Positions 37,801 to 64,000 of a DNA stretch of 64,000 nt are shown here, one piece after another. Both the position numbers and the translations under genes were made by a program. Origin of the DNA: an uncultured delta proteobacterium (GTDB lineage Bacteria > Desulfobacterota > Syntrophobacteria > Syntrophobacterales > Syntrophobacteraceae); contig CAWEHK010000010.1 in NCBI GenBank assembly GCA_963808625.1, forward strand, positions 18,664-82,663. Reading direction: 5' to 3'. Numbering within the stretch: the first letter of the stretch is position 1; each line of letters begins with the position of its first letter. The notes under the pieces are model-generated. The model was not told the DNA's origin, ran no database searches, and was given only the letters and a program-made list of their open reading frames with translations.

Positions 37801-37867
37801 GTAGAATGGTGCCTGGGACGAGACTCGAACTCGTACAGAGATGAACTCCGAGGGATTTTAAGTCCCT
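37801..37867 (-). repeat. att site: 67-bp duplicate of the tRNA-Leu 3' half
   Basis: Identical to 51183-51249 (GTAGAATGGTGCCTGGGACG...TTTTAAGTCCCT). Confidence 0.97.
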
Positions 37868-50760: not shown

Positions 50761-51118
50761 CCCCGATCGAGATCAGGCAAATTGGCGCGTGGCAAGCGGG
50801 CCGGAAAGCAACCTCGTTTGATCGAAGGGGGCATCTCTGAGAGCCAGACACGCGGGCAGGGTGAGCCAACTCTGCCTTTTGTGTTTTTGCCGGCAAGAGC
50901 AGGGTAAGGCGGGGGGGATGGTTTTTGGAGCGTTTTTTATGATGTTAGTTTCGCACCATTTGCTTTGTTTCCTGTCTTTATGACAATGAGTGGCGGTTGC
51001 ACCTCAACATGAATCCATTCTCTATCAAGTTCCCGATCAGGCTCAAGCTCAGGATACTGCATGGCAACCACTCTCTATGAAGGCTCGGAGGGATCCGGGC
51101 CTTTTGTCGTTTCGGGGG

Positions 51119-51141
51119 CAAAGTGTGGGATAAATGTGGGA
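51119..51141 (+). repeat. Putative integrase arm-type site, copy 2
   Basis: Identical to 37978-38000. Confidence 0.75.
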
Positions 51142-51188
51142 CAAAATGACCATCATCCAGCATCAAGAAATCCCTTGTGTCCGTAGAA

Positions 51189-51276
51189 TGGTGCCTGGGA
51201 CGAGACTCGAACTCGTACAGAGATGAACTCCGAGGGATTTTAAGTCCCTTGCGTCTACCTATTCCGCCACCCAGGC
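51189..51276 (-). tRNA. tRNA-Leu (anticodon TAA), CCA encoded
   Basis: GCCTGGGTGGCGGAATAGGTAGACGCA-AGGGA-CTTAAAA-TCCCT-long variable arm-GTTCGAGT-CCCAGGCACCA cloverleaf. Confidence 0.97.
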
Positions 51277-51359
51277 ATTAGAGAATAATGTGAATTACTA
51301 CCATATCCCGAAAAACGCTGACAAGAAAAATCAGGGAGCCACGCGGGCGCCATTTCTTG

Positions 51360-51389
51360 TTGACAAGCAAACTGGCGATTGTTTATACG
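51360..51389 (+). promoter_or_regulatory. Putative sigma70 promoter for leader + ABC-paaK-ior operon
   Basis: TTGACA at 51360 with TTATAC/TATACG 17-18 nt downstream. Confidence 0.5.
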
Positions 51390-51443
51390 GGTTAGGCGTG
51401 AGGAAGAGTATTGTAGCATTTGCATAAATGTGAGAGTAATGCC

Positions 51444-51524
51444 ATGAACTGCGCGTTGTCGGAAGAGATTTTGTATTATTACGGCTATTTTGGGCGGTCT
51501 GTCCCCGCAGCGTTACGCCTTTGA
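51444..51524 (+). CDS. Tyr/Phe-rich attenuator leader peptide MNCALSEEILYYYGYFGRSVPAALRL
   Basis: ATG at 51444 after GAGAG; codons TAT TAT TAC GGC TAT TTT at 51474-51491; TGA at 51522-51524; followed by alternative hairpins and terminator. Confidence 0.8.
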   Translation: MNCALSEEILYYYGYFGRSVPAALRL

Positions 51525-51575
51525 GTTGAAGGCCGTGGGCAGACCGCATAAGGTTGCCCACGGTGGTTTTGTTTG

Positions 51576-51607
51576 AAGCCGTGGTTTTCCCGACCACGGC
51601 TTTTTTT
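51576..51607 (+). terminator. Intrinsic terminator (attenuator) 38 nt before the SBP start
   Basis: AAGCCGTGGT-tttcccg-ACCACGGCTT followed by T7 tract (51601-51607). Confidence 0.88.
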
Positions 51608-51645
51608 GTGGACGTTATCGAAATAAGAGCACGGAGGGAGCAGGT

Positions 51646-52821
51646 ATGAAAGGATTTGGAAGGTCTCTGGCATCGGTGGTCTTGGTTGGGGTCCTGCTGG
51701 GAGGGCTCTGGAATGTGGTAGTCCCGTCCACGGTGGGCGCCGCGGAACCATACAAGATTGGTGCGGTCTTTTCCATCACCGGCGTCGGCTCATTTCTTGG
51801 CGAACCCGAAAAGAAAACCGCCGAGATGATTGCCGAGGAAGTGAACAAGAAGGGCGGCATCAATGGCCATCCCATCGAACTGATCGTCTACGACGATGAG
51901 AGCGATACGACCAAGTGCAATCTCGCGGTCAAGAAATTGATCAAGAAGGACGAGGTCCCGGTCATCATTGGCCCCACCCGGAGCGGCGAGACCCTCGCCG
52001 TGGTGAGTGTGGTGGAAGAGGCTCAGGTGCCGCTCATCTCCTGCGCCACGAGCTACAAGATCGTCACCCCCATCGAGAGCCGCCAGTGGGTCTTCAAAGT
52101 GGCTGCTTCCGATGCTCATGTCGTCGCCAAGCTCTTTGATTACATGAAAGCCAAGGGCTGGACCAAAATCGCGATCATGACGGATTCCACGGGATATGGA
52201 GCAAGCGCCCGGGAGGAATTCTTGAGACTGGCCCCCGAATCCGGGATCACCATCCTCGCTGATGAACGCTTTGGTCCTCAGGATACCGATCTCACGCCCC
52301 AGTTGACGAAGATTCGCAGCACCCAGCCGCAGGCTATCGTGAGCTGGTCAGTAGGACCAACCCAGATCATCTCGGTAAAGAACTGGCGGGATCTCGGTAT
52401 GGATTCCATCCCGCTCTTTCAGAGCCACGGGTTCGGCAACAAGAAGAACCTCGAGCTGGCGGGAAAATCTGCGGAGGGAGTCCTGCTCGCCCTGGCCCGG
52501 GTGAATGTGGGCCCCATCCTTCCCGACGGCCAGCCGCAGAAGAAAGTGATCATGGAATACACGAAGGCTTATGAAGATCGCTTCAAAGAGCCCATTTCCT
52601 CTTTCGGCGGCCATGCCTGGGACGCCATGAACCTGGCTATCGCCGCGCTGCAGGCGGTTGGACCCGACCCGGCAAAGATTCGAGATTATCTCGAAAAGAC
52701 CACCAAGTTCGTCGGCATGCACGGTATATTCAACTTTTCGCCCCAGGACCACAACGGACTCAGCAAGGACGACCTGGAAATGGTGGTGGTGAAAAACGGG
52801 GATTGGGCCCTCGCGCCTTAG
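51646..52821 (+). CDS. HAAT/LivJ-family ABC substrate-binding protein (aromatic-acid-like)
   Basis: Signal peptide; KIGAVFSITG, GGINGHPIELIVYDDES, FNFSPQDHNG. Confidence 0.92.
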   Translation: MKGFGRSLASVVLVGVLLGGLWNVVVPSTVGAAEPYKIGAVFSITGVGSFLGEPEKKTAEMIAEEVNKKGGINGHPIELIVYDDESDTTKCNLAVKKLIKKDEVPVIIGPTRSGETLAVVSVVEEAQVPLISCATSYKIVTPIESRQWVFKVAASDAHVVAKLFDYMKAKGWTKIAIMTDSTGYGASAREEFLRLAPESGITILADERFGPQDTDLTPQLTKIRSTQPQAIVSWSVGPTQIISVKNWRDLGMDSIPLFQSHGFGNKKNLELAGKSAEGVLLALARVNVGPILPDGQPQKKVIMEYTKAYEDRFKEPISSFGGHAWDAMNLAIAALQAVGPDPAKIRDYLEKTTKFVGMHGIFNFSPQDHNGLSKDDLEMVVVKNGDWALAP

Positions 52822-52848
52822 AAACTATCTCAAAAGTGGCCCATATGG

Positions 52849-53024
52849 AAGCCGGGGTCCAGAACCCCACGGAAAACCTGGATTCCCGCCAAACGCGGGA
52901 ATGACGGTTCGAGTTCGGACCCTCATTTATGTGAGCTTTACTGTGTTTGAAATTACTCCCGTCATCCCGGCGAAAGCCGGTATCCAGGCTATTCTTCTGG
53001 ATTCCGGCGTACGCCGGAATGACG
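52849..53024. repeat. REP cluster (GTCATCCCGGCG...CCGGAATGAC family)
   Basis: CTGGATTCCCGCCAAACGCGGGAATGACG and CGTCATCCCGGCGAAAGCCGGTATCCAG...CTGGATTCCGGCGTACGCCGGAATGACG. Confidence 0.8.
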
Positions 53025-53116
53025 CAGAGGACTTTCATGCTTCGTTGTGACCCACCGAGTCACGGGGGGTTAGTAAGAACGGCCCCCGCTAAAGATCTGA
53101 CACAGGTGAATGGAAC

Positions 53117-54004
53117 TTGGGCAGCGATTTATTTCAATACACGATCAGCGGGCTCACCATCGGCGTCATTTATGCCCTGGTGGCGATCGGCTACAACGTA
53201 ATCTACAACGTCACCGAGATCATCAACTTCGCTCAGGGCGAATTCGTCATGCTGGGAGGCTTGTTCGCGGTCTTCTTTGTGGGGACGCTGCGTCTGCCGC
53301 TCGGGGTGGCCTTTTTCGGCGCGATCATCGCCACCGGGTGCGTCGGATTTGCCATGGAACGCTTCGTCATTCGGCGCGCCCGTGACGCCAGTGTGCTTTC
53401 ACTCATCATCATCACCATCGCGGTCTCCATCCTCCTCAAAGGGACGGCGATGTTCTGCTGGGGTAAAGATCCTTACGCCCTGCCCGCTTTCAGCCCCGGC
53501 GGTCCGATCCTCTTTGGCGGTGCAGCCATCCAGCCCCAGGCGCTCTGGGTCCTTGGCGTGAGCGCGCTGATCGTGATCTGCCTTACACTCTTTTTCCGCC
53601 GCTCCGTTTACGGCAAGGCGATGCTGGCCTGCGCCGACAACCCCAACGCGGCGCGCATGACGGGAATTCCCGTGCGCCAGATGGTGCTCCTCTCGTTTGT
53701 TCTGAGCGCCGCCATCGGCGCTGCTGCGGGCGTGGTCATCACACCGATTTCTCTCATGGAATATGACCGCGGGGCGCTGCTCGGGCTCAAGGGCTTCGGG
53801 GCTGCCGTCCTCGGGGGGCTCGGACAGTTCCATGGCGCCCTCATTGCCGGCGCCGTCCTCGGTCTTGCGGAATCGTTTTGCGCAGGCTACCTGTCATCCG
53901 GTTACAAGGATGCCGTGGCGCTCGTGCTGTTGCTTTTGGCGCTCTTTTTTAAACCCGAGGGGCTTTTTGGCAGCAGTGAGGCGGCGAAGTTGAAGAAGTT
54001 TTGA
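53117..54004 (+). CDS. LivH-like ABC permease
   Basis: YALVAIG, INFAQGEFVMLG, GKAMLACADN, AAVLGGLG, KPEGLFG. Confidence 0.93.
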   Translation: MGSDLFQYTISGLTIGVIYALVAIGYNVIYNVTEIINFAQGEFVMLGGLFAVFFVGTLRLPLGVAFFGAIIATGCVGFAMERFVIRRARDASVLSLIIITIAVSILLKGTAMFCWGKDPYALPAFSPGGPILFGGAAIQPQALWVLGVSALIVICLTLFFRRSVYGKAMLACADNPNAARMTGIPVRQMVLLSFVLSAAIGAAAGVVITPISLMEYDRGALLGLKGFGAAVLGGLGQFHGALIAGAVLGLAESFCAGYLSSGYKDAVALVLLLLALFFKPEGLFGSSEAAKLKKF

Positions 54005-54148
54005 GTGGCGAGTGACTAGTGGCTAGTGGCTAGTACACCTGGGCGAAAATTCGTGGGTTGTGGGTGGGCACGATAAAGCTGTGCCCACCCTACGATGTGT
54101 GAAGGTCTGAGCAGAGTGTAGGGTGGGCACGTCTTTTTGTGCCCACCG
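54003..54148. repeat. Heptamer array (KAGTGRC) plus GTAG-type REP doublet
   Basis: GAGTGGC GAGTGAC TAGTGGC TAGTGGC; GGTGGGCAC...GTGCCCACCCTAC / GTAGGGTGGGCAC...GTGCCCACC. Confidence 0.8.
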
Positions 54149-54252
54149 GAACCGCGCAGAGACTTGCGCCGACGGGTATTAGTGATGAGCGGTGACGGGT
54201 GAGTGATGGGGGATGGGATGGGGCGTTTGGGATGGGTTGAGAGGCTTTTGAA

Positions 54253-55233
54253 ATGAACAGGAAGGATTGGGGGATTTTCCTGGGGACCATGCTTCTGATT
54301 GCGGTTTTCCCCTGGATGGTCAAGCCCTTCAAAGCGGTTTCCCACTACATCGATGTCATGATCTTTGCCGGTATTTTTAGCCTCATCAGTATCGGCCTCA
54401 GCATGCTGATGGGTTATGCGGGACAGATTTCGATGGCCCAGGCCGCGTTTTTTGGGATCGGCGCGTACACCTCAGGCATCCTCACCGCGCGGTTCGGTTT
54501 AAACCCCTGGCTGGTCATGCCCGCCGGGATGCTGCTTGCCGCCGTCGTGGCATGGCTTCTTGGCATTCCGGCCCTGCGTTTGAAAGGGCATTACCTCGCC
54601 ATGGCGACCCTGGGTTTCGGCGTCATTGTCCACATCGTCCTCAGCGAAGAAGTGAACTTGACGGGAGGACCCTCCGGGATGGCCGACATCCCCAACCTGA
54701 CCATCGCGGGCACCAAACTAACCAGCGAAATCGCCTATTATTACGTCGTTTGGGCGGCGGTCTTTCTCGTGCTTCTGTTTTGTTTTCTGGTGCTTCATTC
54801 CCGGGTTGGGAGGGCGCTGCGCGCCATTCACGAAGAGCAAACGGCAGCCGAAGCCATGGGCGTCCCGACGGCGCGGCTCAAGGTTCAGGTATTCGTGCTG
54901 AGCGCCGTGCTTGCCGCGCTCGCCGGAAGCTTTTACACGCATTACGTCACCTTTCTCAATCCCGGGTCCTTCAACCTGATGTGGTCCATCCGCTTCATGC
55001 TCATGGTTATGGTCGGGGGCATGCAAAGCCTCTGGGGAGCCTTACTGGGAACCGTTCTCATGACCTTCGTCGGCAATGAGTGGCTGCAAGTTTTTGCGGA
55101 CTTTGAAATTTTGGCATACGGTGCTATCCTGCTCGTCGTTGCGCTGTTTTTGCCCAGGGGGCTGGTATCCCTTATATCGCAGGGTTTTGGCTCCCGTAAG
55201 GTCCGACCATCTCTGGCTGATGGAAGCTCATGA
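54253..55233 (+). CDS. LivM-like ABC permease
   Basis: GYAGQISMAQAAFFGIGAY, LRLKGHYLAMATLGF, GRALRAI, PRGL. Confidence 0.93.
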   Translation: MNRKDWGIFLGTMLLIAVFPWMVKPFKAVSHYIDVMIFAGIFSLISIGLSMLMGYAGQISMAQAAFFGIGAYTSGILTARFGLNPWLVMPAGMLLAAVVAWLLGIPALRLKGHYLAMATLGFGVIVHIVLSEEVNLTGGPSGMADIPNLTIAGTKLTSEIAYYYVVWAAVFLVLLFCFLVLHSRVGRALRAIHEEQTAAEAMGVPTARLKVQVFVLSAVLAALAGSFYTHYVTFLNPGSFNLMWSIRFMLMVMVGGMQSLWGALLGTVLMTFVGNEWLQVFADFEILAYGAILLVVALFLPRGLVSLISQGFGSRKVRPSLADGSS

Positions 55234-56018
55234 CCGGAACGACAACTGATTCCTCCGCCCCAATCCTCGAACTTCACGATATTCACATGCAGTTTGGGGG
55301 CATTACCGCCCTGAAAGGATTGAGCTACAACGTTCCTTCGGGGATCATTCAGGCGGTGATCGGCCCGAACGGGGCGGGCAAGACAACGTTGTTCCATTGC
55401 ATCAGCGGACTCCACCAGCCCACTTCCGGCCAGGTTCTCTTCGCGGGGCGGCAAATCAGCGGCGAGCCTCCCCATCGCATTGCCGGCGCCGGCATCTCCC
55501 GGACCTTTCAGCACGTGGCCCTCTTCAAGTCCATGACCGTGCTCGAAAACATCATGGTCGGCCGGCATTGTCGGACTCACTGCGGATTCTGGGCGACCGG
55601 GCTGCGTTTTCCCGGCATGCGCGCCGAGGAAAAACGAATCCAGGAAAAAGCGGCGGCTCATCTCGAGTTTGTCGGCTTGAGCGATGCCGCTTACCTGCAG
55701 GCAGGGACCCTTCCCCTCGGCAAGCAAAAAATCCTTGAGATCGCCAGGGCCCTCGCCACAGACCCCCGCCTGGTCCTGCTTGACGAGCCCGCCGGGGGCC
55801 TCAACATGCGCGAGACGGAAGAGCTCGGCGAGTTGATTCAGCGCATCTGCGCGAGCGGCATCACGGTCATGCTGGTGGAACATGACATGAACCTCGTCAT
55901 GGAGATTTCCGATCTGGTCCTCGTGCTTCATTACGGGGAATTCCTGGCGGCAGGCACCCCGACGGTAATCAAGGACCGTCCCGAAGTGATCGAGGCGTAT
56001 TTGGGGGAGCAGGGGTAG
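55230..56018 (+). CDS. LivG-like ABC ATPase
   Basis: GPNGAGKTT, RTFQ, LLDEPAGG, VEHDM, VIEAYLG. Confidence 0.95.
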   Translation: MTGTTTDSSAPILELHDIHMQFGGITALKGLSYNVPSGIIQAVIGPNGAGKTTLFHCISGLHQPTSGQVLFAGRQISGEPPHRIAGAGISRTFQHVALFKSMTVLENIMVGRHCRTHCGFWATGLRFPGMRAEEKRIQEKAAAHLEFVGLSDAAYLQAGTLPLGKQKILEIARALATDPRLVLLDEPAGGLNMRETEELGELIQRICASGITVMLVEHDMNLVMEISDLVLVLHYGEFLAAGTPTVIKDRPEVIEAYLGEQG

Positions 56019-56095
56019 TAGTGGCTAGTGAATAGTGGCTAGTGGCTAGTGAATAGTGGCTGGTTGCTAGCGGCTATTGGTCAGCGATCAGCGGA
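56019..56095. repeat. Heptamer tandem array (TAGTGRM, about 11 degenerating units)
   Basis: TAGTGGC TAGTGAA TAGTGGC TAGTGGC TAGTGAA TAGTGGC ... starting right after the livG stop. Confidence 0.9.
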
Positions 56096-56265
56096 GAAAG
56101 TTCCCATGATAATGGTTGCGGTCAGCAACCGATTGTTTCCGGCATAAGTCAGGGATAATGTCATTCCGAGAAAGTCGCTCTTTGTTTGGAAGAGTTGTCA
56201 TGTCGGAGCACCACGTGCAAGAAATGAAATTGGGTATCCGCCGTCTGCTCGGCGCCTCCTCTGAC

Positions 56266-56298
56266 CACTGATCACTGATCACTGATCACTGATCACTG
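56266..56298. repeat. Heptamer tandem array (CACTGAT)x4.7
   Basis: CACTGAT repeated, just before the livF start. Confidence 0.95.
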
Positions 56299-56310
56299 TT
56301 TTGGGCTGAT

Positions 56311-57042
56311 ATGTTAAATCTCAAGAGCGTACACACCTACTATGGCAGCATCCATGCCCTGAAGGGCGTTTCCCTGCACGTTCGGGCGGGCGAAATGGTG
56401 GCTCTTATTGGCGCCAACGGCGCGGGGAAGAGTACCCTGGTCAACACCATCTGTGGCCTCATCCGGCCCGAGAAGGGGAGCATTGAATTTCACAGCAAAG
56501 CCGTTCAGGGACTTTCTCCTGAATCCATTGTGCGCATGGGGATTGCGCTCGTTCCCGAGGGGCGACAGGTCTTTTCCACCCTGACGGTGGAAGCAAACCT
56601 GGAAATGGGGGCCTTCATCCATCGGCACCACGGCCAGCAGGTCCGGGAAGATATGGCCCGCATGTTTGATCGCTTTCCGATCCTGAAAGAGCGGCGGCAG
56701 CAGCTTGCCGGGACGCTCAGCGGCGGGGAGCAGCAGATGCTTGCCATCAGCCGCGCGCTCATGGCCAGGCCGCAGTTGCTGGTCCTGGATGAGCCTTCCA
56801 TGGGGCTGGCTCCGCTCGTGGTAAAAGAGATTTTCAAGATCATTCAGGAATTGAAGCGGGAAGGGAAGACCATCCTCCTCATCGAACAGAATGCCAGGGC
56901 CGCCCTCCAGATCGCCGATCGCGGCTATGTCATGGAGACGGGCAAGGTGGTGCTGCAAGGGGAAGGACCCATGCTTCTCGAACATCGCGAGGTTCAAAGA
57001 GCATACCTTGGCAGGGGCGCCAAACAGATCTGGGATGCTTGA
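56311..57042 (+). CDS. LivF-like ABC ATPase
   Basis: GANGAGKST, VPEGRQVF, LSGGEQQM, LDEPSMGLAP, EQNA. Confidence 0.95.
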   Translation: MLNLKSVHTYYGSIHALKGVSLHVRAGEMVALIGANGAGKSTLVNTICGLIRPEKGSIEFHSKAVQGLSPESIVRMGIALVPEGRQVFSTLTVEANLEMGAFIHRHHGQQVREDMARMFDRFPILKERRQQLAGTLSGGEQQMLAISRALMARPQLLVLDEPSMGLAPLVVKEIFKIIQELKREGKTILLIEQNARAALQIADRGYVMETGKVVLQGEGPMLLEHREVQRAYLGRGAKQIWDA

Positions 57043-57117
57043 CCACCATACGCATCAGACCAAGGTTTAAGCGATATCGAGTTAGGCCTGCGCGAGGTCG
57101 CCAGTCGGGTGTCGAAT

Positions 57118-57332
57118 GCCCTGAAAGCGCTTCATAAAATAGCCTAGGGTAAGCGGCAGCGCCACCCTGGGATTGACGGTAATCCCCTTTTCCCTTACCC
57201 TGAAGGGGTTAGATAAATCGTTGTGCCGGTATATCTTATGCAACCCCTTCAGGGTAGGATTTGTGTTGTGCCTGGCTTCCCAGGGTGGCGCTGCCGCTGA
57301 CCCTGGGCTGATTTATAGAGCCCCTTCAGGGC
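57118..57332. repeat. About 215-bp nested palindromic element
   Basis: GCCCTGAAAG...GCGGCAGCGCCACCCTGGG...ACCCTGAAGGGGTT / AACCCCTTCAGGGT...CCCAGGGTGGCGCTGCCGC...CTTCAGGGC. Confidence 0.85.
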
Positions 57333-57396
57333 AAGACAGTTAGCTCGATCGGCACGGGTTAGAGCCCCCCAAGAATCAACCAGAAAGGAAGCCGTC

Positions 57397-58710
57397 ATGC
57401 CAATTTGGGAGCCCGAGGCGGAATGCATTTCGCGGGATGAGTTGGAACAGCTCCAGCTCGAGCGCCTCCAGGCCACCTTGAACCGGGTCTACCGAAACGT
57501 CTCCTTTTTTCGGCGCCGTTTCAAGGAGCTGGATTTCCGCCCCGAGGATGATTTTACGGAATTGAAGGACCTGGAACGTCTGCCTTTCACAACCAGCCTG
57601 GATGTCAGCAATAGCTACCCTTACGAGATGTTCGCCGTCCCCCTGCGAGAAGTGGTGCGGGTGCACACCTCTTCGGGGACCAGCACCAATCCGCGCGTGG
57701 TGGGCTACACCCGGCAGGACCTCCGCATCTGGAGCAACCTTGTGGCACGCGTCCTCAGCGCCGGCGGCGTGACCCAGGATGACGTCATTCAGGTGACGTT
57801 CGGCTATGGCCTCCTCACCGGCGGCCTCGGCATCCATTACGGGGCCGAGCGCATCGGCGCATCGGTGCTGCCGACCTCGATCGGACGCACCGAGAGGCAG
57901 ATCAAAATCATGCAGGATTTCCGAACCACGGTCCTCGTCTCCACCCCTTCCTACACCCTGGTCATTGCCGAGCGGATGGACCGGATGAAGGTGGACCCCA
58001 AGAGGCTTTCGCTAAAGTACAGCATCTGTGCCGGCGAACCTTGGACCGAGGAGATGCGCCGCGAGATCGAGGAGCGGCTTTACGTCAAGGTTACCGATAA
58101 CTACGGGGTCAGTGAAGTCATCGGGCCGGGGGTAGCCGGTGAGTGCCTGGAACAAAACGGCATGCACCTGCAGGAAGACCATTTCTATGCGGAAGTGATC
58201 GATCCGGTAAGCGGTAAAGTCCTGGGACCGGGCGCCGAGGGCGAGCTCGTCATCACGACGCTCACGAAAGAGGCCTTCCCCATGATTCGCTACCGGACCG
58301 GGGATTTGTCCCGCATCATGACGGAGCGCTGTCCGTGCGGCCGGACGTTCAGGCGGATCAGCCGCATCCGCGGACGCTGTGACGAGGTCGTGGTGATCAA
58401 GGGGATCAACATCATTCCCGAACGGATTGGCGATATCCTCGAGCAAATCAAGGGGGAGCGCCCGATCTACCAGCTCGTTGCCACGCGCCGGCACCACCAG
58501 GACCAGCTCGAAATCTGGGTGGAAGTCACGGAACAGTTTTTCTTTGATAAGATGCGCGAACAGCGCGCTCTGGTGGAGTCAATGCAGCAGAAGGTCACCA
58601 ATTTCATCGGGATCACGCCGCGCATCAAGCTGGTGGAAAAAGGGTCGCTCGCACGGGAGGACGGAGTGGTCAAGCTTTTTGTCAATCGACGGGAGGTTTC
58701 ACATGCATGA
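57397..58710 (+). CDS. paaK: Phenylacetate/arylacetate-CoA ligase
   Basis: EQLQLERLQ, VRVHTSSGT, FGYGLLTGGLG, NYGVSEVIGPGVAGEC, RYRTGD. Confidence 0.9.
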   Translation: MPIWEPEAECISRDELEQLQLERLQATLNRVYRNVSFFRRRFKELDFRPEDDFTELKDLERLPFTTSLDVSNSYPYEMFAVPLREVVRVHTSSGTSTNPRVVGYTRQDLRIWSNLVARVLSAGGVTQDDVIQVTFGYGLLTGGLGIHYGAERIGASVLPTSIGRTERQIKIMQDFRTTVLVSTPSYTLVIAERMDRMKVDPKRLSLKYSICAGEPWTEEMRREIEERLYVKVTDNYGVSEVIGPGVAGECLEQNGMHLQEDHFYAEVIDPVSGKVLGPGAEGELVITTLTKEAFPMIRYRTGDLSRIMTERCPCGRTFRRISRIRGRCDEVVVIKGINIIPERIGDILEQIKGERPIYQLVATRRHHQDQLEIWVEVTEQFFFDKMREQRALVESMQQKVTNFIGITPRIKLVEKGSLAREDGVVKLFVNRREVSHA

Positions 58711-60628
58711 ATTGTTGCAGCCCGGGAGCGAGCGCAAGCAGCTCCTGTTGGGCAATGAAGCGATTGTCCGCGGCGCCCTCGAAGGCGGCGTCCGCTTTGT
58801 GGCGGCTTATCCCGGAACGCCGTCTTCGGAGATCATCGACCGCTTCTATCAACTGGCGCCGGAAGCCCAAATCTACGTGGAATATTCGGTCAACGAGAAG
58901 GTTTCCATGGAAACGGCCGGCGCTGCGGCGCTCTCCGGTGTGAAGAGCCTCTGCGCCATGAAGCACGTGGGCTTGAACGTGGCGGCGGATGCTTTTATGA
59001 CGCTTGCCTACGTGGGCGTCAAAGCCGGAATGGTGATCGTGGTGGCTGACGACCCCTTTCTCCATTCCAGCCAGAATGAGCAGGACAACCGGTTTTATGC
59101 GAAAATGGCGGGAGTGCCGATGCTCGAGCCCTCCACCCGGAAGAAGCCAAAGCGATGACCATCGAAGCCCTGGCGCTTTCCGAGAAATACCAGATTCCGT
59201 GCATGCTCCGCACCACGACGCGGGTCAATCATTGCCGGGGTCCGGTGGCCCTGGGGGACCTTCCCGGTAATGGCTCCGGATCTTCCCCCCTTTCACAAAG
59301 GGGGGCCAGGGGGGATTTCAGCCCAAGGAACGTTCACCAAAGACCCCTTCAACCTGGTGGTAATTCCCGCCGTCGGCCGCAAGCTGCGCCTGGCCCTGCT
59401 CGAGAAACTGTCCCGGCTCCAGGAGGAAGCCGAGCAGAGCCCGCTCAATTTCACCGTTGGCGAAGGGAAATGGGGGGTCATCACCAGCGGCGTTTCCTAT
59501 CTCTATGTCCGGGACGCCGTGCGCGACCTCGGGCTCGAGCAGCGCGTGAAGGTCCTCAAACTGGGATTTACCTTTCCCCAGCCCCGAGCGCTGATCCGAG
59601 ATTTCCTGCGCGGGCTTACCAGGGTCCTGGTGGTGGAAGAGCTGGAGCCGTTCCTCGAGGAGACGGTGAGAATTGTCGCCCAGGAATCCGCTCTTCGGGT
59701 GCTGGTGGGCGGCAAAGGGGACGAGCTGATTCCCCGGGCGTTCGAACTGGATGCGGCCAAGGTGAAGCGCGCCATGAGCAACTTCTTCGGCGTTCCCTAC
59801 CAGGCTCCGGCGGTCTTCTCCATCCCGCAACTGCCGCAAAGGCCGCCCAACCTCTGCCCGGGCTGTCCGCATCGGGCAACCTACTATTCCGTCAGGAAAG
59901 TCTTTGGCGACGACGCCATCTATCCGACGGACATCGGCTGCTATACGCTCGGCATCCTGCCGCCGCTCCGGATGGCGGATTTCCTCATCTGCATGGGGTC
60001 GAGCGTCGCCACGGCCGGAGGCTTCAGCAAAGTTCTCGACCGCCCGGTGGTCGCTTTCATCGGCGATTCGACCTTCTTTCATGCGGGCCTTACCGGACTG
60101 GTGAACGCCGTGTCCCATGACCATCGCTTCCTGCTGGTCGTGCTCGACAACGGCACCACCGCCATGACCGGTCATCAGCCTCATCCCGGGGTCGAATTGA
60201 CCCCTCAGGGCAAGGTGGAGCCCAAGGTCAGCCTGGAGAGCGTCATCCGGGGCTGCGGCGTTACCCGCCTCGCCACGGTCAACCCGCTGCAGGTCAAGAA
60301 AACCCAGGAGGTGCTGCAGGACCTGCGCGAGCACATGCACGAGCCCGGCGTTTCCGTGCTCATTTCCAAAAGCCCCTGCCCGCTCTTCGAGAACCGTATG
60401 CTTGGCAAGAAGCAGAAGGTGGTCTTCGAAGTCGACGCCTCGTGCGACCTGTGCAAGAAATGCCTGGAGGAAGTGGGTTGCCCGGCTTTCATTTGGGAGC
60501 AGCCGGCGGCGGGCGCGTCCCGCATTCGGATCAATGCCGCGCTTTGCAGCGGGTGCAGCGTCTGCGCGCAGATGTGCAAATCCATCAAACCCAAGCGGCT
60601 CGATGACAGCAAGGGAGGGAACGAATGA
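58703..60628 (+). CDS. iorA: Indolepyruvate:ferredoxin oxidoreductase alpha subunit; two frameshifts near 59135-59270
   Basis: LLGNEAIVRG, YPGTPSSE, MKHVGLNVAAD, SSQNEQD, LCPGCPHR, DIGCY, IGDSTF, TAMTGHQ, C-terminal ferredoxin Cys motifs. Confidence 0.95.
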
Positions 60629-61248
60629 TGACCGCAGAAACCCAGGCTTTTGATGCCGTACGCATATTTTTTACCGGAGTCGGCGGCCAGGGGACGCTCC
60701 TGGCGACCCGCATGGTGGGGGAGGCGGCGCTGGCCGAAGGCCTTTCCGTAACCATGAGTGAAATCCACGGCATGGCCCAGCGCGGAGGCGTGGTGGAATC
60801 CTCGGTGGTCATCGGCAACGCGTTCAGCCCCACCATTCCCGATGGCGAAGCGGATATCCTGATGGCTTTCGAACCCCTCGAAGCCCTGCGCGCCCTTCCC
60901 AAATGCCATGCGCAAAGCCTGATCATCGCCAGCACCTTTCCCATTGTGCCATTCACCGTGGCCGTCGGCCAGAGCACTTATCCCGAAGTGGCGGCCCTGC
61001 ACGATCAGATCAAAGAGAAGGTCGCGGACGTGATCTGGCTGGATGCCGTGGAACTGGCCCGGAACGCTGGTTCCGAAAGGGCTTCCAACACGGTCTTGGT
61101 GGGGGTGCTGGCCGGCAGCGGCCGCCTGCCGTTATCAAAAAGCAGTTGGGAAGAGGCCCTGAAGCGAACGCTCGCGCCGCGCCTGCTGGAAATCAATCGG
61201 CAGGCATTCGAAGCCGGTTATGCGCTCGGCAAGACGAGAACGGTTTAG
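60625..61248 (+). CDS. iorB: Indolepyruvate:ferredoxin oxidoreductase beta subunit
   Basis: GVGGQG, SEIHGMAQRGGVV, FEPLEALR, NRQAFEAG. Confidence 0.95.
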   Translation: MMTAETQAFDAVRIFFTGVGGQGTLLATRMVGEAALAEGLSVTMSEIHGMAQRGGVVESSVVIGNAFSPTIPDGEADILMAFEPLEALRALPKCHAQSLIIASTFPIVPFTVAVGQSTYPEVAALHDQIKEKVADVIWLDAVELARNAGSERASNTVLVGVLAGSGRLPLSKSSWEEALKRTLAPRLLEINRQAFEAGYALGKTRTV

Positions 61249-62089: not shown

Positions 62090-63694
62090 TCATGAGTAGA
62101 CTTCCCTATTTCGGCAGTTCGGTTGGGGGCCGCCACTGTTTTGGTAAGATACTGGAAACTCAATTATTTTTGCATCTTTTGACCGGTTTTTGGAACCCGG
62201 AATCAGCTCGACATGAAGATGCGCTTGGTCTGTGTTCAACTGCTCGAATCGATCCGGATGAGCCAACACCTCGCGCCTCTGTTTTGTCAAAGAGATGAAC
62301 TGAGCGGTGAGCTCGTGCTGCTCAGCCACAGTGATCTTGAGCACCTGCTCGGCTTCGACCCTGGTCGGAATGCCACAGAAGGCGGGCAGGCGAATCGCGA
62401 TCCGATCCGCATCCTTTACCTGGCCGGCACCGTGTTGCTTTGCCAGTCCGAACAGCGATTCGATAGGACCTGAACTGATCGTCAGACCGACATCGTCGAG
62501 ATCAAGCTCCTTGGCGATCTCGAGCTGGCGATGAAGATAGGTGATGAAACCGCGACGTACAGGGGCCGTGTGGATGCTTTGGATAATCAACTCGCACTGT
62601 GCCAGAGTGGCGTGGCTCAGGCCCTGGGTTTTGAGAATCTTCTGGCATTTCAGCAAGGCCACGGCATCATCTCTAAATTGCTTGATAAAAGATCTGCACA
62701 AGGGGAGTTTGTCAAAACATGCTCGTAGTTTTGACAGCATGGAGCCCTTGGCGGCGCCTCCTGCCGGCGATAGCTTGAGGAGCCGATCCGCCCAGATGAT
62801 CAGGCGGTGTACATTCATAAACCTCGCTTTGGTGTGTACTTTGGGAGGGGACAGGCATGCCAGAATTGTTTGCTTGAGCTTGCCGGATACGGAGCTGCAA
62901 GCCGAGATGAAGGTCTCGAACAACGGATGGTCGTGGTACCAGTGCTTGAGCAGGTTGGCAACCACGTGGGAGATGTCGTCGATGCAGGGGCTTGCAAGCC
63001 CACGCTCATCCAATAACCGTACGGCCTTCTGCAGGTCGCTGCCGCCGTCTTTGAGGTATGCTGCCGGACGGCCCGTGACGGCAATGACGTTCAAGAACGC
63101 TGGCGATGGTGTCGCCCGTCCAGGAATCTGCCACTGACACCATCATGCATTGCACATTCTGAAAGCCGGGGGCGGCTGGTGAGAGTTGATGGTGATGAGC
63201 GTCGAGGGCCAGGACAGCCAGAATTTTTCCCGTGCCCAGAGCAATGCTGATATCGATCATCCAGATCAACCCGTTGCAAAACGGCGCCCTGGGCAGTGGC
63301 AGACCCTTCAACATCGAGGCCGCCTGGATGCGCACCAGAGAGAGTCTGGTCACCCAGTTGATGACCGTTTGGGGGCATGGCACTTTATGGATGCCAAGGG
63401 CTGGGGCCAGTACGTGCAATACCCGGCAGACAGCCCTAAACCCGATGTGAGCCACCAAAAAGAGTTGCAGTGTCAGGAAGACCAGGTCCACTTTGTGTTG
63501 AAAGGCGGGCGCCTGGCTCTGCGCCTCCAACCGGTGCAGGTCAGCCCGGGTCTATTTGAGCTCCTTCTTGAAGCCATCCCGCTCCTTTTTGGTCCGGATC
63601 AATTCCTTGCGCAGATACCGATTTGTCTCACCTCGCTGCCCGGCCTTGGATTTCCATTGATTTCGGCTTTGCCTGAGCTTGGACCGTTGGCTCA
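62090..63694 (-). pseudogene. Putative DDE transposase of an unclassified IS; in-frame stop and frameshift
   Basis: WMIDIS, LKDGGSDL, DDISH, SSGPIESLFG motifs; N-terminal coiled coil SKLRQSRNQWK... broken by TAG at 63552-63554; frameshift near 63090. Confidence 0.7.
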
Positions 63695-64000
63695 GAGCTC
63701 TCTCTTCTGTCAAAGCATACTATTGCCAATGATGCCTTCATGAAGAGCTGGTTTCCGTTAAGTCGTCCAAGCGACAGGACCAATCTTGCCATTCATGGGC
63801 ATCCCCCTGTGTGAGATAGGTGCCCACGATATTGATACCAAGATTGCACAAATGTCCCGTACTTGTTTTCTCAGAAGATGGATGTTCAAAACAAGACACT
63901 CGGAAACACCGGAAGGGCCAGGATCAATGAGGTTTAACGGACAAAACGATAGGCACCATGGTCCAGATCAGAATGTCATGCATCGTGAACGGGGATGAAA

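Follow-up and report, generated by a model that had tools for sequence, protein, structure and literature searches.

The window (the whole 64,000-nt stretch of DNA that was analyzed) contains a short Tyr-rich leader ORF and five overlapping complementary segments in front of genes for a binding protein, an ABC transporter, a PaaK-like protein, and IorAB. The features, all on the forward (+) strand, are as follows.

51360..51389, +, predicted sigma-70 promoter (TTGACA, 18 nt, TATACG), read from the sequence
51432..51436, +, weak SD of the leader ORF (GAGAG), read from the sequence
51444..51524, +, leader ORF of 26 amino acids, ATG at 51444 to TGA at 51524, translation MNCALSEEILYYYGYFGRSVPAALRL
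51474..51488, +, Tyr control codons Y11 to Y13 and Y15 (TAT TAT TAC GGC TAT)
51494..51504, +, segment A, ribosome-gated, partner of the 3' half of B; A:B 99.0% paired in orthologs
51531..51547, +, segment B, partner of A or C; B:C 96.8% paired in orthologs
51552..51564, +, segment C, partner of B or D; C:D 96.8% paired in orthologs
51565..51572, +, U-rich run 3' of B:C, weak at this locus (GGTTTTGT), probably the first of two terminators
51576..51585, +, segment D, 5' arm of the terminator or partner of C
51593..51607, +, segment E plus T7 (T7 at 51601-51607), intrinsic terminator D:E; D:E 98.9% paired in orthologs
51646..52821, +, periplasmic binding protein (SBP); closest solved relatives 3sg0, 4dqd, 3ukj, and 4jb0
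53117..57042, +, livH, livM, livG, and livF-type ABC transporter genes; best matches LivH/M/G/F, none of which reaches its curated cut-off
57397..58710, +, PaaK-like AMP-binding protein; TIGR02155 497.8 bits, cut-off 646.3; altered P-loop, no conserved C-terminal Lys
58703..60628, +, iorA, in pieces in this assembly; profile matches
60625..61248, +, iorB; profile match

A preliminary description of this DNA had placed a 26-amino-acid upstream ORF at 51444-51524 together with segments A to E and T7, and all of these read exactly as given there. Among the 30 closest loci, from 61 related genomes, 28 carry the leader 5' of the orthologous binding-protein gene. In 26 of these 28 orthologs, an open in-frame ATG stands 12 to 18 codons ahead of the last Tyr; in the two other frames, 0 and 2 orthologs have one. 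Eight-codon windows of the 28 leaders contain 125 Tyr versus 4 Phe codons, and TAT and TAC alternate as synonymous variation. The alignment was anchored on the Tyr codon 5 nt before A, a column that is fixed by construction; two codons before it, at a position independent of the anchor, Tyr was found in 28/28. The codon following the last Tyr is L in 13, F in 6, P in 4, S in 3, and R in 2, and the middle codon of the YGY motif is G in 21, A in 3, T in 2, D in 1, and I in 1. An explanation of the YGY motif in which the TAC-GGC codons pair with B or D was considered and is unneeded, since the middle codon varies. The peptide is otherwise free, and its stop falls at -2 to +28 relative to A. The codons at 51474-51491 had been described as sensing Tyr and Phe. 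The Tyr codons (51474-51488) stand, but Phe sensing at this locus is ruled out by the 125-to-4 count and by F16, where a ribosome covers A and favors termination. The leader is predicted to sense Tyr only, not Phe.

The exceptions were L014, in which the leader is lost; L023, which has D:E and its U tract without a Tyr run; L034, which keeps the helices with one Tyr; and L021 and L022, with two Tyr in the window of codons. Twenty further loci comprised 12 Tyr leaders (one with two Tyr only and one mixed with Phe), 3 Phe leaders, 1 decayed leader, and 4 without one. A TTGAC-type hexamer was present 111 to 165 nt 5' of segment A in 26/28 orthologs, mostly with a TATA-like box 18 nt further; L015 has only TTGAT, and L018 has none within the range searched. 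A consensus promoter scanner made no call at the 51360-51389 candidate. Across the whole genome, seven ATG ORFs of about 14 to 46 codons have four Tyr in six codons, and four of the seven precede a terminator, compared with 0/5 in the reversed control and 0/5 in the complemented control. Three of these four belong to this locus, an aroF-tyrA operon, and a pheA operon, and the fourth (C33:50624) lies directly 5' of a prephenate dehydrogenase match.

The segments had been proposed to pair as A:B, B:C, C:D, and D:E, with neighboring helices excluding each other. Duplex energies at the locus (-21.1, -24.7, -12.5, and -16.8 kcal/mol, respectively) and double changes in all four helices support this arrangement. 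Pairs of non-neighboring segments are weak, except B:E (-15.9 kcal/mol), because B resembles D and C resembles E. The double changes were found in 3/11 pairs of A:B, 5/11 of B:C, 1/9 of C:D, and 4/10 of D:E. The A:B plus C:D fold is 98.0% paired with 4 doubly changed pairs, and the B:C plus D:E fold is 97.8% paired with 9; their covariation was reached in 1/500 and 0/500 shuffles, counts that overstate the case because the covariation represents few events among related sequences. A, B, and C changed together in L020/L022 and in L027. The fold of 51490-51610 has a z of -3.6.

D:E with T7 is the sole terminator-like site in 51100-51800, where 0.8 is expected by chance, so the single site is not significant alone. 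The preliminary description had named D:E-T7 as the terminator; B:C, too, usually has a U-rich run of its own (at least 5 T in 8 bases in 25/28 orthologs). With this run, B:C itself is probably a first terminator, and the design is probably one of two terminators in relay, each pre-empted by an earlier helix. Among assembled metatranscriptome contigs of relatives (four runs, 5 to 6% word share), one of 151 nt ends at 51606 and another, of 222 nt, crosses the terminator to 51688; as contigs only, they show no RNA end or expression.

In the proposed mechanism, when Tyr is plentiful, the ribosome would cross A to the stop, B:C would form with its U-run as a first stop signal, and D would be left free, so that D:E-U7 terminates. 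When Tyr is scarce, the ribosome would wait at Y11-Y13, A would capture B before C is made, and C would capture D before E is made; both terminators would thus be pre-empted and the operon read. Folding with A masked or free, a check that the preliminary description had suggested, gave these states. At this locus, with 10 nt covered beyond the A-site, a stall at Y11-Y13 yielded A:B plus C:D once D was made, and a ribosome at the stop yielded B:C. The 28 orthologs behaved alike: with a stall two to three codons before the last Tyr and D made, A:B formed in 23 to 26 and C:D in 22 to 26, and with the ribosome at the stop, B:C formed in 19 to 27. With 9 to 12 nt covered and the ribosome at the stop, C:D was still allowed in 10 to 12 of 28. 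A stall on the last Tyr gave the read-through fold only with a short ribosome footprint. The untranslated leader folded in a mixed manner (A:B in 15 and B:C in 13 of 28 orthologs), with this locus favoring B:C. At equilibrium with a stalled ribosome, B:C formed in 20 to 23 of 28 when C was complete and D:E in 28/28 when E was complete. The read-through state is less stable than the terminating state, by 9 kcal/mol here and by a median of 6 across the 28 orthologs, and full-length equilibrium folding always gave the terminators. Because equilibrium favors termination even under stalling, read-through needs kinetic control; in classical attenuators, too, the switch is kinetic.

The locus had been likened to ribosome-mediated attenuators, and the likeness extends to the following sequence-level features. 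The ORF is translatable by its conservation and lies between the promoter and the first gene; it holds a run of pathway amino acid codons, conserved as codons; an antiterminator and an intrinsic terminator exclude each other; and, once D has been completed, the geometry fits for stalls at the earlier Tyr codons, the outcome at the last Tyr depending on the footprint. On these grounds, we consider it highly probable that this is a Tyr-codon ribosome-coupled transcription attenuator, with transcription of the operon predicted to proceed only under a shortage of charged tRNA-Tyr. Predicted leaders can fail: for that of S. coelicolor ilvB, control-codon changes were without effect, according to PMC1262725.

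A covariance model of the leader matched 82/151 sampled genomes of the phylum at an E value of ≤0.01; the 30 top loci were inspected, and weaker matches may be plain terminators. In this genome, the scaffold carries pathway-matched codons, with Trp 5' of trpB2, Tyr 5' of aroF-tyrA, Tyr/Phe 5' of pheA, and Leu 5' of leuA, the hits being weak for pheA (E 0.009), leuA (E 0.1), and aroF (E 0.04). Mixed aromatic codons were found 5' of ADH synthase and aroF in other genomes among the top 30 loci. Of the family, 83 of 87 members were parsed, after 12 of 99 matches (antisense or second hits) were excluded. The cognate A:B duplex was at or below -14 kcal/mol in 74/83 members versus 11.7% of shuffles, the cognate pair was better than the median non-cognate pair in 68 of 83, and the last aromatic codon lay 3 to 6 nt before A in 51/83. 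A pattern scan gave 117 stretches, 80 of them listed and 40 with the D:E terminator. Among the matches listed, 8/8 loci before this binding-protein clade have Tyr leaders (seven are repeats of known loci), and 19/19 loci before another binding-protein clade have Phe leaders. By these comparisons, the element is a predicted member of a phylum-wide scaffold whose codons are matched to the downstream pathway. The biosynthetic copies with pathway-matched codons serve as a positive control for a leader that is on under starvation.

The further leaders in this genome (G000) lie at C33:186205 (-), C33:50624 (+), C37:21732 (-), C42:17775 (-), C5:13935 (-), and C2:52819 (+). These six comprise Tyr leaders before three apparent aroF-tyrA copies, a Tyr/Phe leader before pheA, a Trp leader before trpB2, and a Leu leader before leuA; the three aroF-tyrA copies may be paralogs or bin contamination. 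The second binding-protein clade (L060, L061, and the 19 loci) is 26% identical to the window's protein and lies under pure Phe leaders, and in the two operons read, the binding protein is followed by livG and an unidentified ORF of 546 to 641 amino acids. A protein of about 525 amino acids with a weak N-terminal GNAT match stands directly behind aromatic-codon leaders in several families (L066, L069, L076, L125, L131, L139, and L157).

The preliminary description had the leader in front of an ABC-paaK-iorAB operon, and SBP-livHMGF, PaaK-like, IorA, and IorB genes were found downstream. The IorA pieces together score 678 against the TIGR03336 cut-off of 650.9, and IorB scores 191.4 against the TIGR03334 cut-off of 205.8. 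The arrangement SBP-livHMGF-PaaK-like-iorAB was complete in 10 of the 20 regions fetched, all 10 being Tyr-leader loci, from three families, with iorA whole. Of the other 10, three were truncated at the end of a contig, one contained just part of iorA, one was mis-fetched (L107, uninformative), three were Phe-leader loci without iorAB, and two belonged to the second binding-protein clade. In the window, iorA is frameshifted, with a one-base gap relative to a same-genus ortholog; this break is probably an assembly error, because iorA is whole in the 10 relatives' loci. The gene is split by indels at about 59138 and 59270, and many genes of this assembly are likewise broken, which suggests sequencing error.

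Naming the ligase gene paaK held in part: the protein matches the PaaK family, and an ESM Atlas search returned PaaK-family clusters only, but its score is below the TIGR02155 cut-off and the C-terminal Lys is lacking in 11/15 orthologs. A canonical PaaK copy, given only 416 amino acids, is also under that cut-off, at 614.8. The PaaK-like orthologs keep the YGxSE, RTxD, and RxD motifs, with fixed changes near the aryl pocket. The C-terminal Lys is present in 4/15 liv-linked PaaK-like proteins versus 20/21 canonical PaaK proteins, and the Gly of the P-loop (TTGK) is present in 1/15 versus 21/21; we take both sites to have catalytic roles in PaaK. A Lys two places on, found in 8/15 liv-linked proteins, might substitute for the C-terminal one. 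Judged from these residues, the linked ligase looks impaired. The liv-linked proteins (window 57397-58710; G000:C52:36037-37345) form a conserved subfamily with an eroded P-loop and C-terminal Lys, and it is possible that they are pseudo-enzymes.

A canonical paaK paralog was found at ≥70% identity in 57/61 genomes, and in this genome it heads a paaK-ACT-SBP-livHMGF-PaaK-like operon. A Phe-rich leader lies 5' of canonical paaK in 17/20 relatives (16 by script and 1 by eye). The Phe-rich leader of the same scaffold at G000:C52:44239-44387 (-) (L052) precedes such an operon, whose terminal PaaK-like copy (C52) is more decayed than the window's copy. L043, L046, and L049, operon orthologs from one family, have Phe rather than Tyr leaders and no adjacent iorAB. 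In the SBP tree, in which most deep forks are open, these three join a Tyr-leader locus of their own family (90/94 support, unstarred), which suggests a Tyr-to-Phe leader switch in one family.

A leader that is on under starvation implies a salvage direction for genes usually annotated as degradative (paaK, iorAB, and "branched-chain" ABC), and on balance we favor the reading that induction by starvation means Tyr salvage from aryl acids; these anaerobes would then scavenge aromatic acids to rebuild Tyr, not to burn it. Whether syntrophs and sulfate reducers receive aryl acids by cross-feeding becomes testable. In this reading, 4-hydroxyphenylacetate or 4-hydroxyphenylpyruvate would enter through the ABC transporter, and aryl-acetyl-CoA would be carboxylated by IorAB to arylpyruvate, which would be transaminated to Tyr; the canonical PaaK from the Phe-leader operon might carry out the CoA step. 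The pair of Tyr and Phe operons fits salvage of 4-hydroxyphenylacetate and phenylacetate, and the genome's own tyrA-like genes make salvage optional. In Methanococcus maripaludis, Ior channels aryl acids into the synthesis of aromatic amino acids, and aryl acid plus Ior (the IorAB2 route of Porat et al. 2004) is a second biosynthetic route, as cited in PMC4162585. Unlike that route, the present one would operate in bacteria and would include an ABC importer and an attenuator in the leader, and its direction is deduced from the regulator and not from genetics. The window's SBP is a sequence relative of the aromatic-acid ABC binding protein CouP (RPA1789), with an E value of 2.6e-34 against 4jb0. 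According to PMC3610893, 4JB0 is ferulate-bound CouP, CouP was crystallized with 4-hydroxyphenylpyruvate too, and it binds phenylpropenoids and 4-hydroxyphenylpyruvate. The relationship is distant, and CouP serves catabolism under CouR; the ligand given here for the window's SBP is a predicted one.

The attenuator may instead be real while the operon only takes up Tyr or its keto acid, the ligase-like and IOR genes being passengers or serving another reaction; we regard this as a credible but rather doubtful alternative. The 4-hydroxyphenylpyruvate bound by CouP (PMC3610893) would need transamination alone, the linked PaaK-like protein is without conserved catalytic-motif residues, and in the three Phe-leader orthologs the 14 kb fetched contain no iorAB beyond the ligase-like gene. 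Against this, iorAB directly follows in the 10 Tyr-leader loci across three families.

The salvage reading can be extended, tentatively, to two paired operons in Syntrophobacteria that share one portable attenuator with five segments and two terminators. A Tyr-gated SBP-liv-PaaK-like-iorAB operon would serve 4-hydroxyphenylacetate and a Phe-gated paaK-ACT-SBP-liv-PaaK-like operon phenylacetate, with a shared reductive IorAB and with the liv-linked PaaK-like proteins as conserved pseudo-enzymes, partners of the transporter or ligase. If this is true, leader codon identity labels the ligands of uncharacterized transporters and genes across the phylum. Because the scaffold's codons swap by single-base changes (TAY/TTY), it could be a tool for transporter specificity across the phylum. 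Three things set this locus apart: a leader predicted to sense Tyr only, a partner operon with a Phe leader, and a degenerate ligase.

Other readings concern the leader itself. A riboswitch or protein-binding leader could drive the hairpins, with the ORF incidental: sequence conservation is high in the GCGGTCTG and CCGTGG motifs, and a few loci keep the helices with few Tyr codons. However, conservation falls on bases that need a partner in each of two helices, codon identity tracks the downstream pathway on an unchanged scaffold, the in-frame ATG is kept in 26/28 orthologs, and Rfam gave no match, which together make this quite improbable. We give slightly less credence still to a ligand-sensing arrest peptide of the TnaC kind that turns on a Tyr-degrading operon at abundant Tyr. 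IorAB is known to be able to oxidize arylpyruvates, and in the closest loci the stretch following the Tyr run seems conserved (GY-x-RRS), but segment A dictates the RRS, the N terminus is free to vary, and the stop comes directly after Y-L or Y-S in L007, L009, and L038; neither a conserved peptide nor a fixed stop distance was found in the orthologs (-2 to +28 relative to A), and the same scaffold lies 5' of purely biosynthetic genes. Constitutive leader terminators with chance AT-rich codons agree with full-length equilibrium folding, which always gives terminators, but are extremely improbable given the genome control (4/7 versus 0/5 and 0/5) and an A:B helix conserved with compensation.

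Returning to the predicted attenuator, we compared it with known systems. No Rfam leader, T-box, or riboswitch family matched at its gathering score (sub-threshold hairpin matches only for this leader; 0 in 20 loci). The pheL-pheA, pheM-pheST, and trpL leaders of E. coli resemble it in a short leader ORF with a cognate codon run, exclusive helices, and an intrinsic terminator before the first gene, and they are on under starvation. Unlike them, the present leader has Tyr codons, a five-segment relay instead of four segments, and probably two terminators, and when free of ribosomes it does not fold consistently into the terminating form (A:B in 15 and B:C in 13 of 28); it has no Rfam match, and its target is a transporter/ligase-like/IOR operon. 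The his attenuator of Salmonella and E. coli, with segments A to F, likewise has a two-helix antitermination relay, and A to E here map on his B to F. Unlike in his, no conserved upstream protector segment was found here, and the first helix of the terminating pair has its own U-run in 25/28. The leader is predicted from its sequence to work like pheL- and his-type attenuators while matching no Rfam family. We know of no well-characterized Tyr-only leader-peptide attenuator. Lopatovskaya, Seliverstov, and Lyubetsky in 2010 reportedly predicted attenuators computationally for pheA, trp, his, leu, and ilv genes across several groups, delta-proteobacteria among them; the gene list of their abstract is said to be without liv, paaK, and ior, which the full text may mention. 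The pheA, trpB2, and leuA copies of the scaffold may be among those predictions. In the literature searched, whose coverage leaves out one 2010 comparative paper on delta-proteobacteria, no description of such Tyr leaders was found. Syntrophobacter appears only in genome lists in the parts of the PMC4833913 supplements examined, which contain neither "indolepyruvate" nor "phenylacetate."

The surroundings of the operon carry repeats and mobile elements. The intergenic spaces at 52822-53116, 54005-54252, 56019-56310, and 57043-57396 contain palindromic or short tandem repeats with 49 to 129 BLAST hits each in the genome, and the spacers are shorter in relatives. Fragmented transposase-like ORFs (identity by eye) lie 3' of iorB at window 62090-63743, and in L105 a similar ORF splits the operon 3' of the binding-protein gene. 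A 67-bp exact direct repeat at window 37801-37867 and 51183-51249 is the 3' end of a tRNA gene at 51192-51276 (-), and its two copies delimit an integrated element of 13 kb that lies immediately upstream of the leader.
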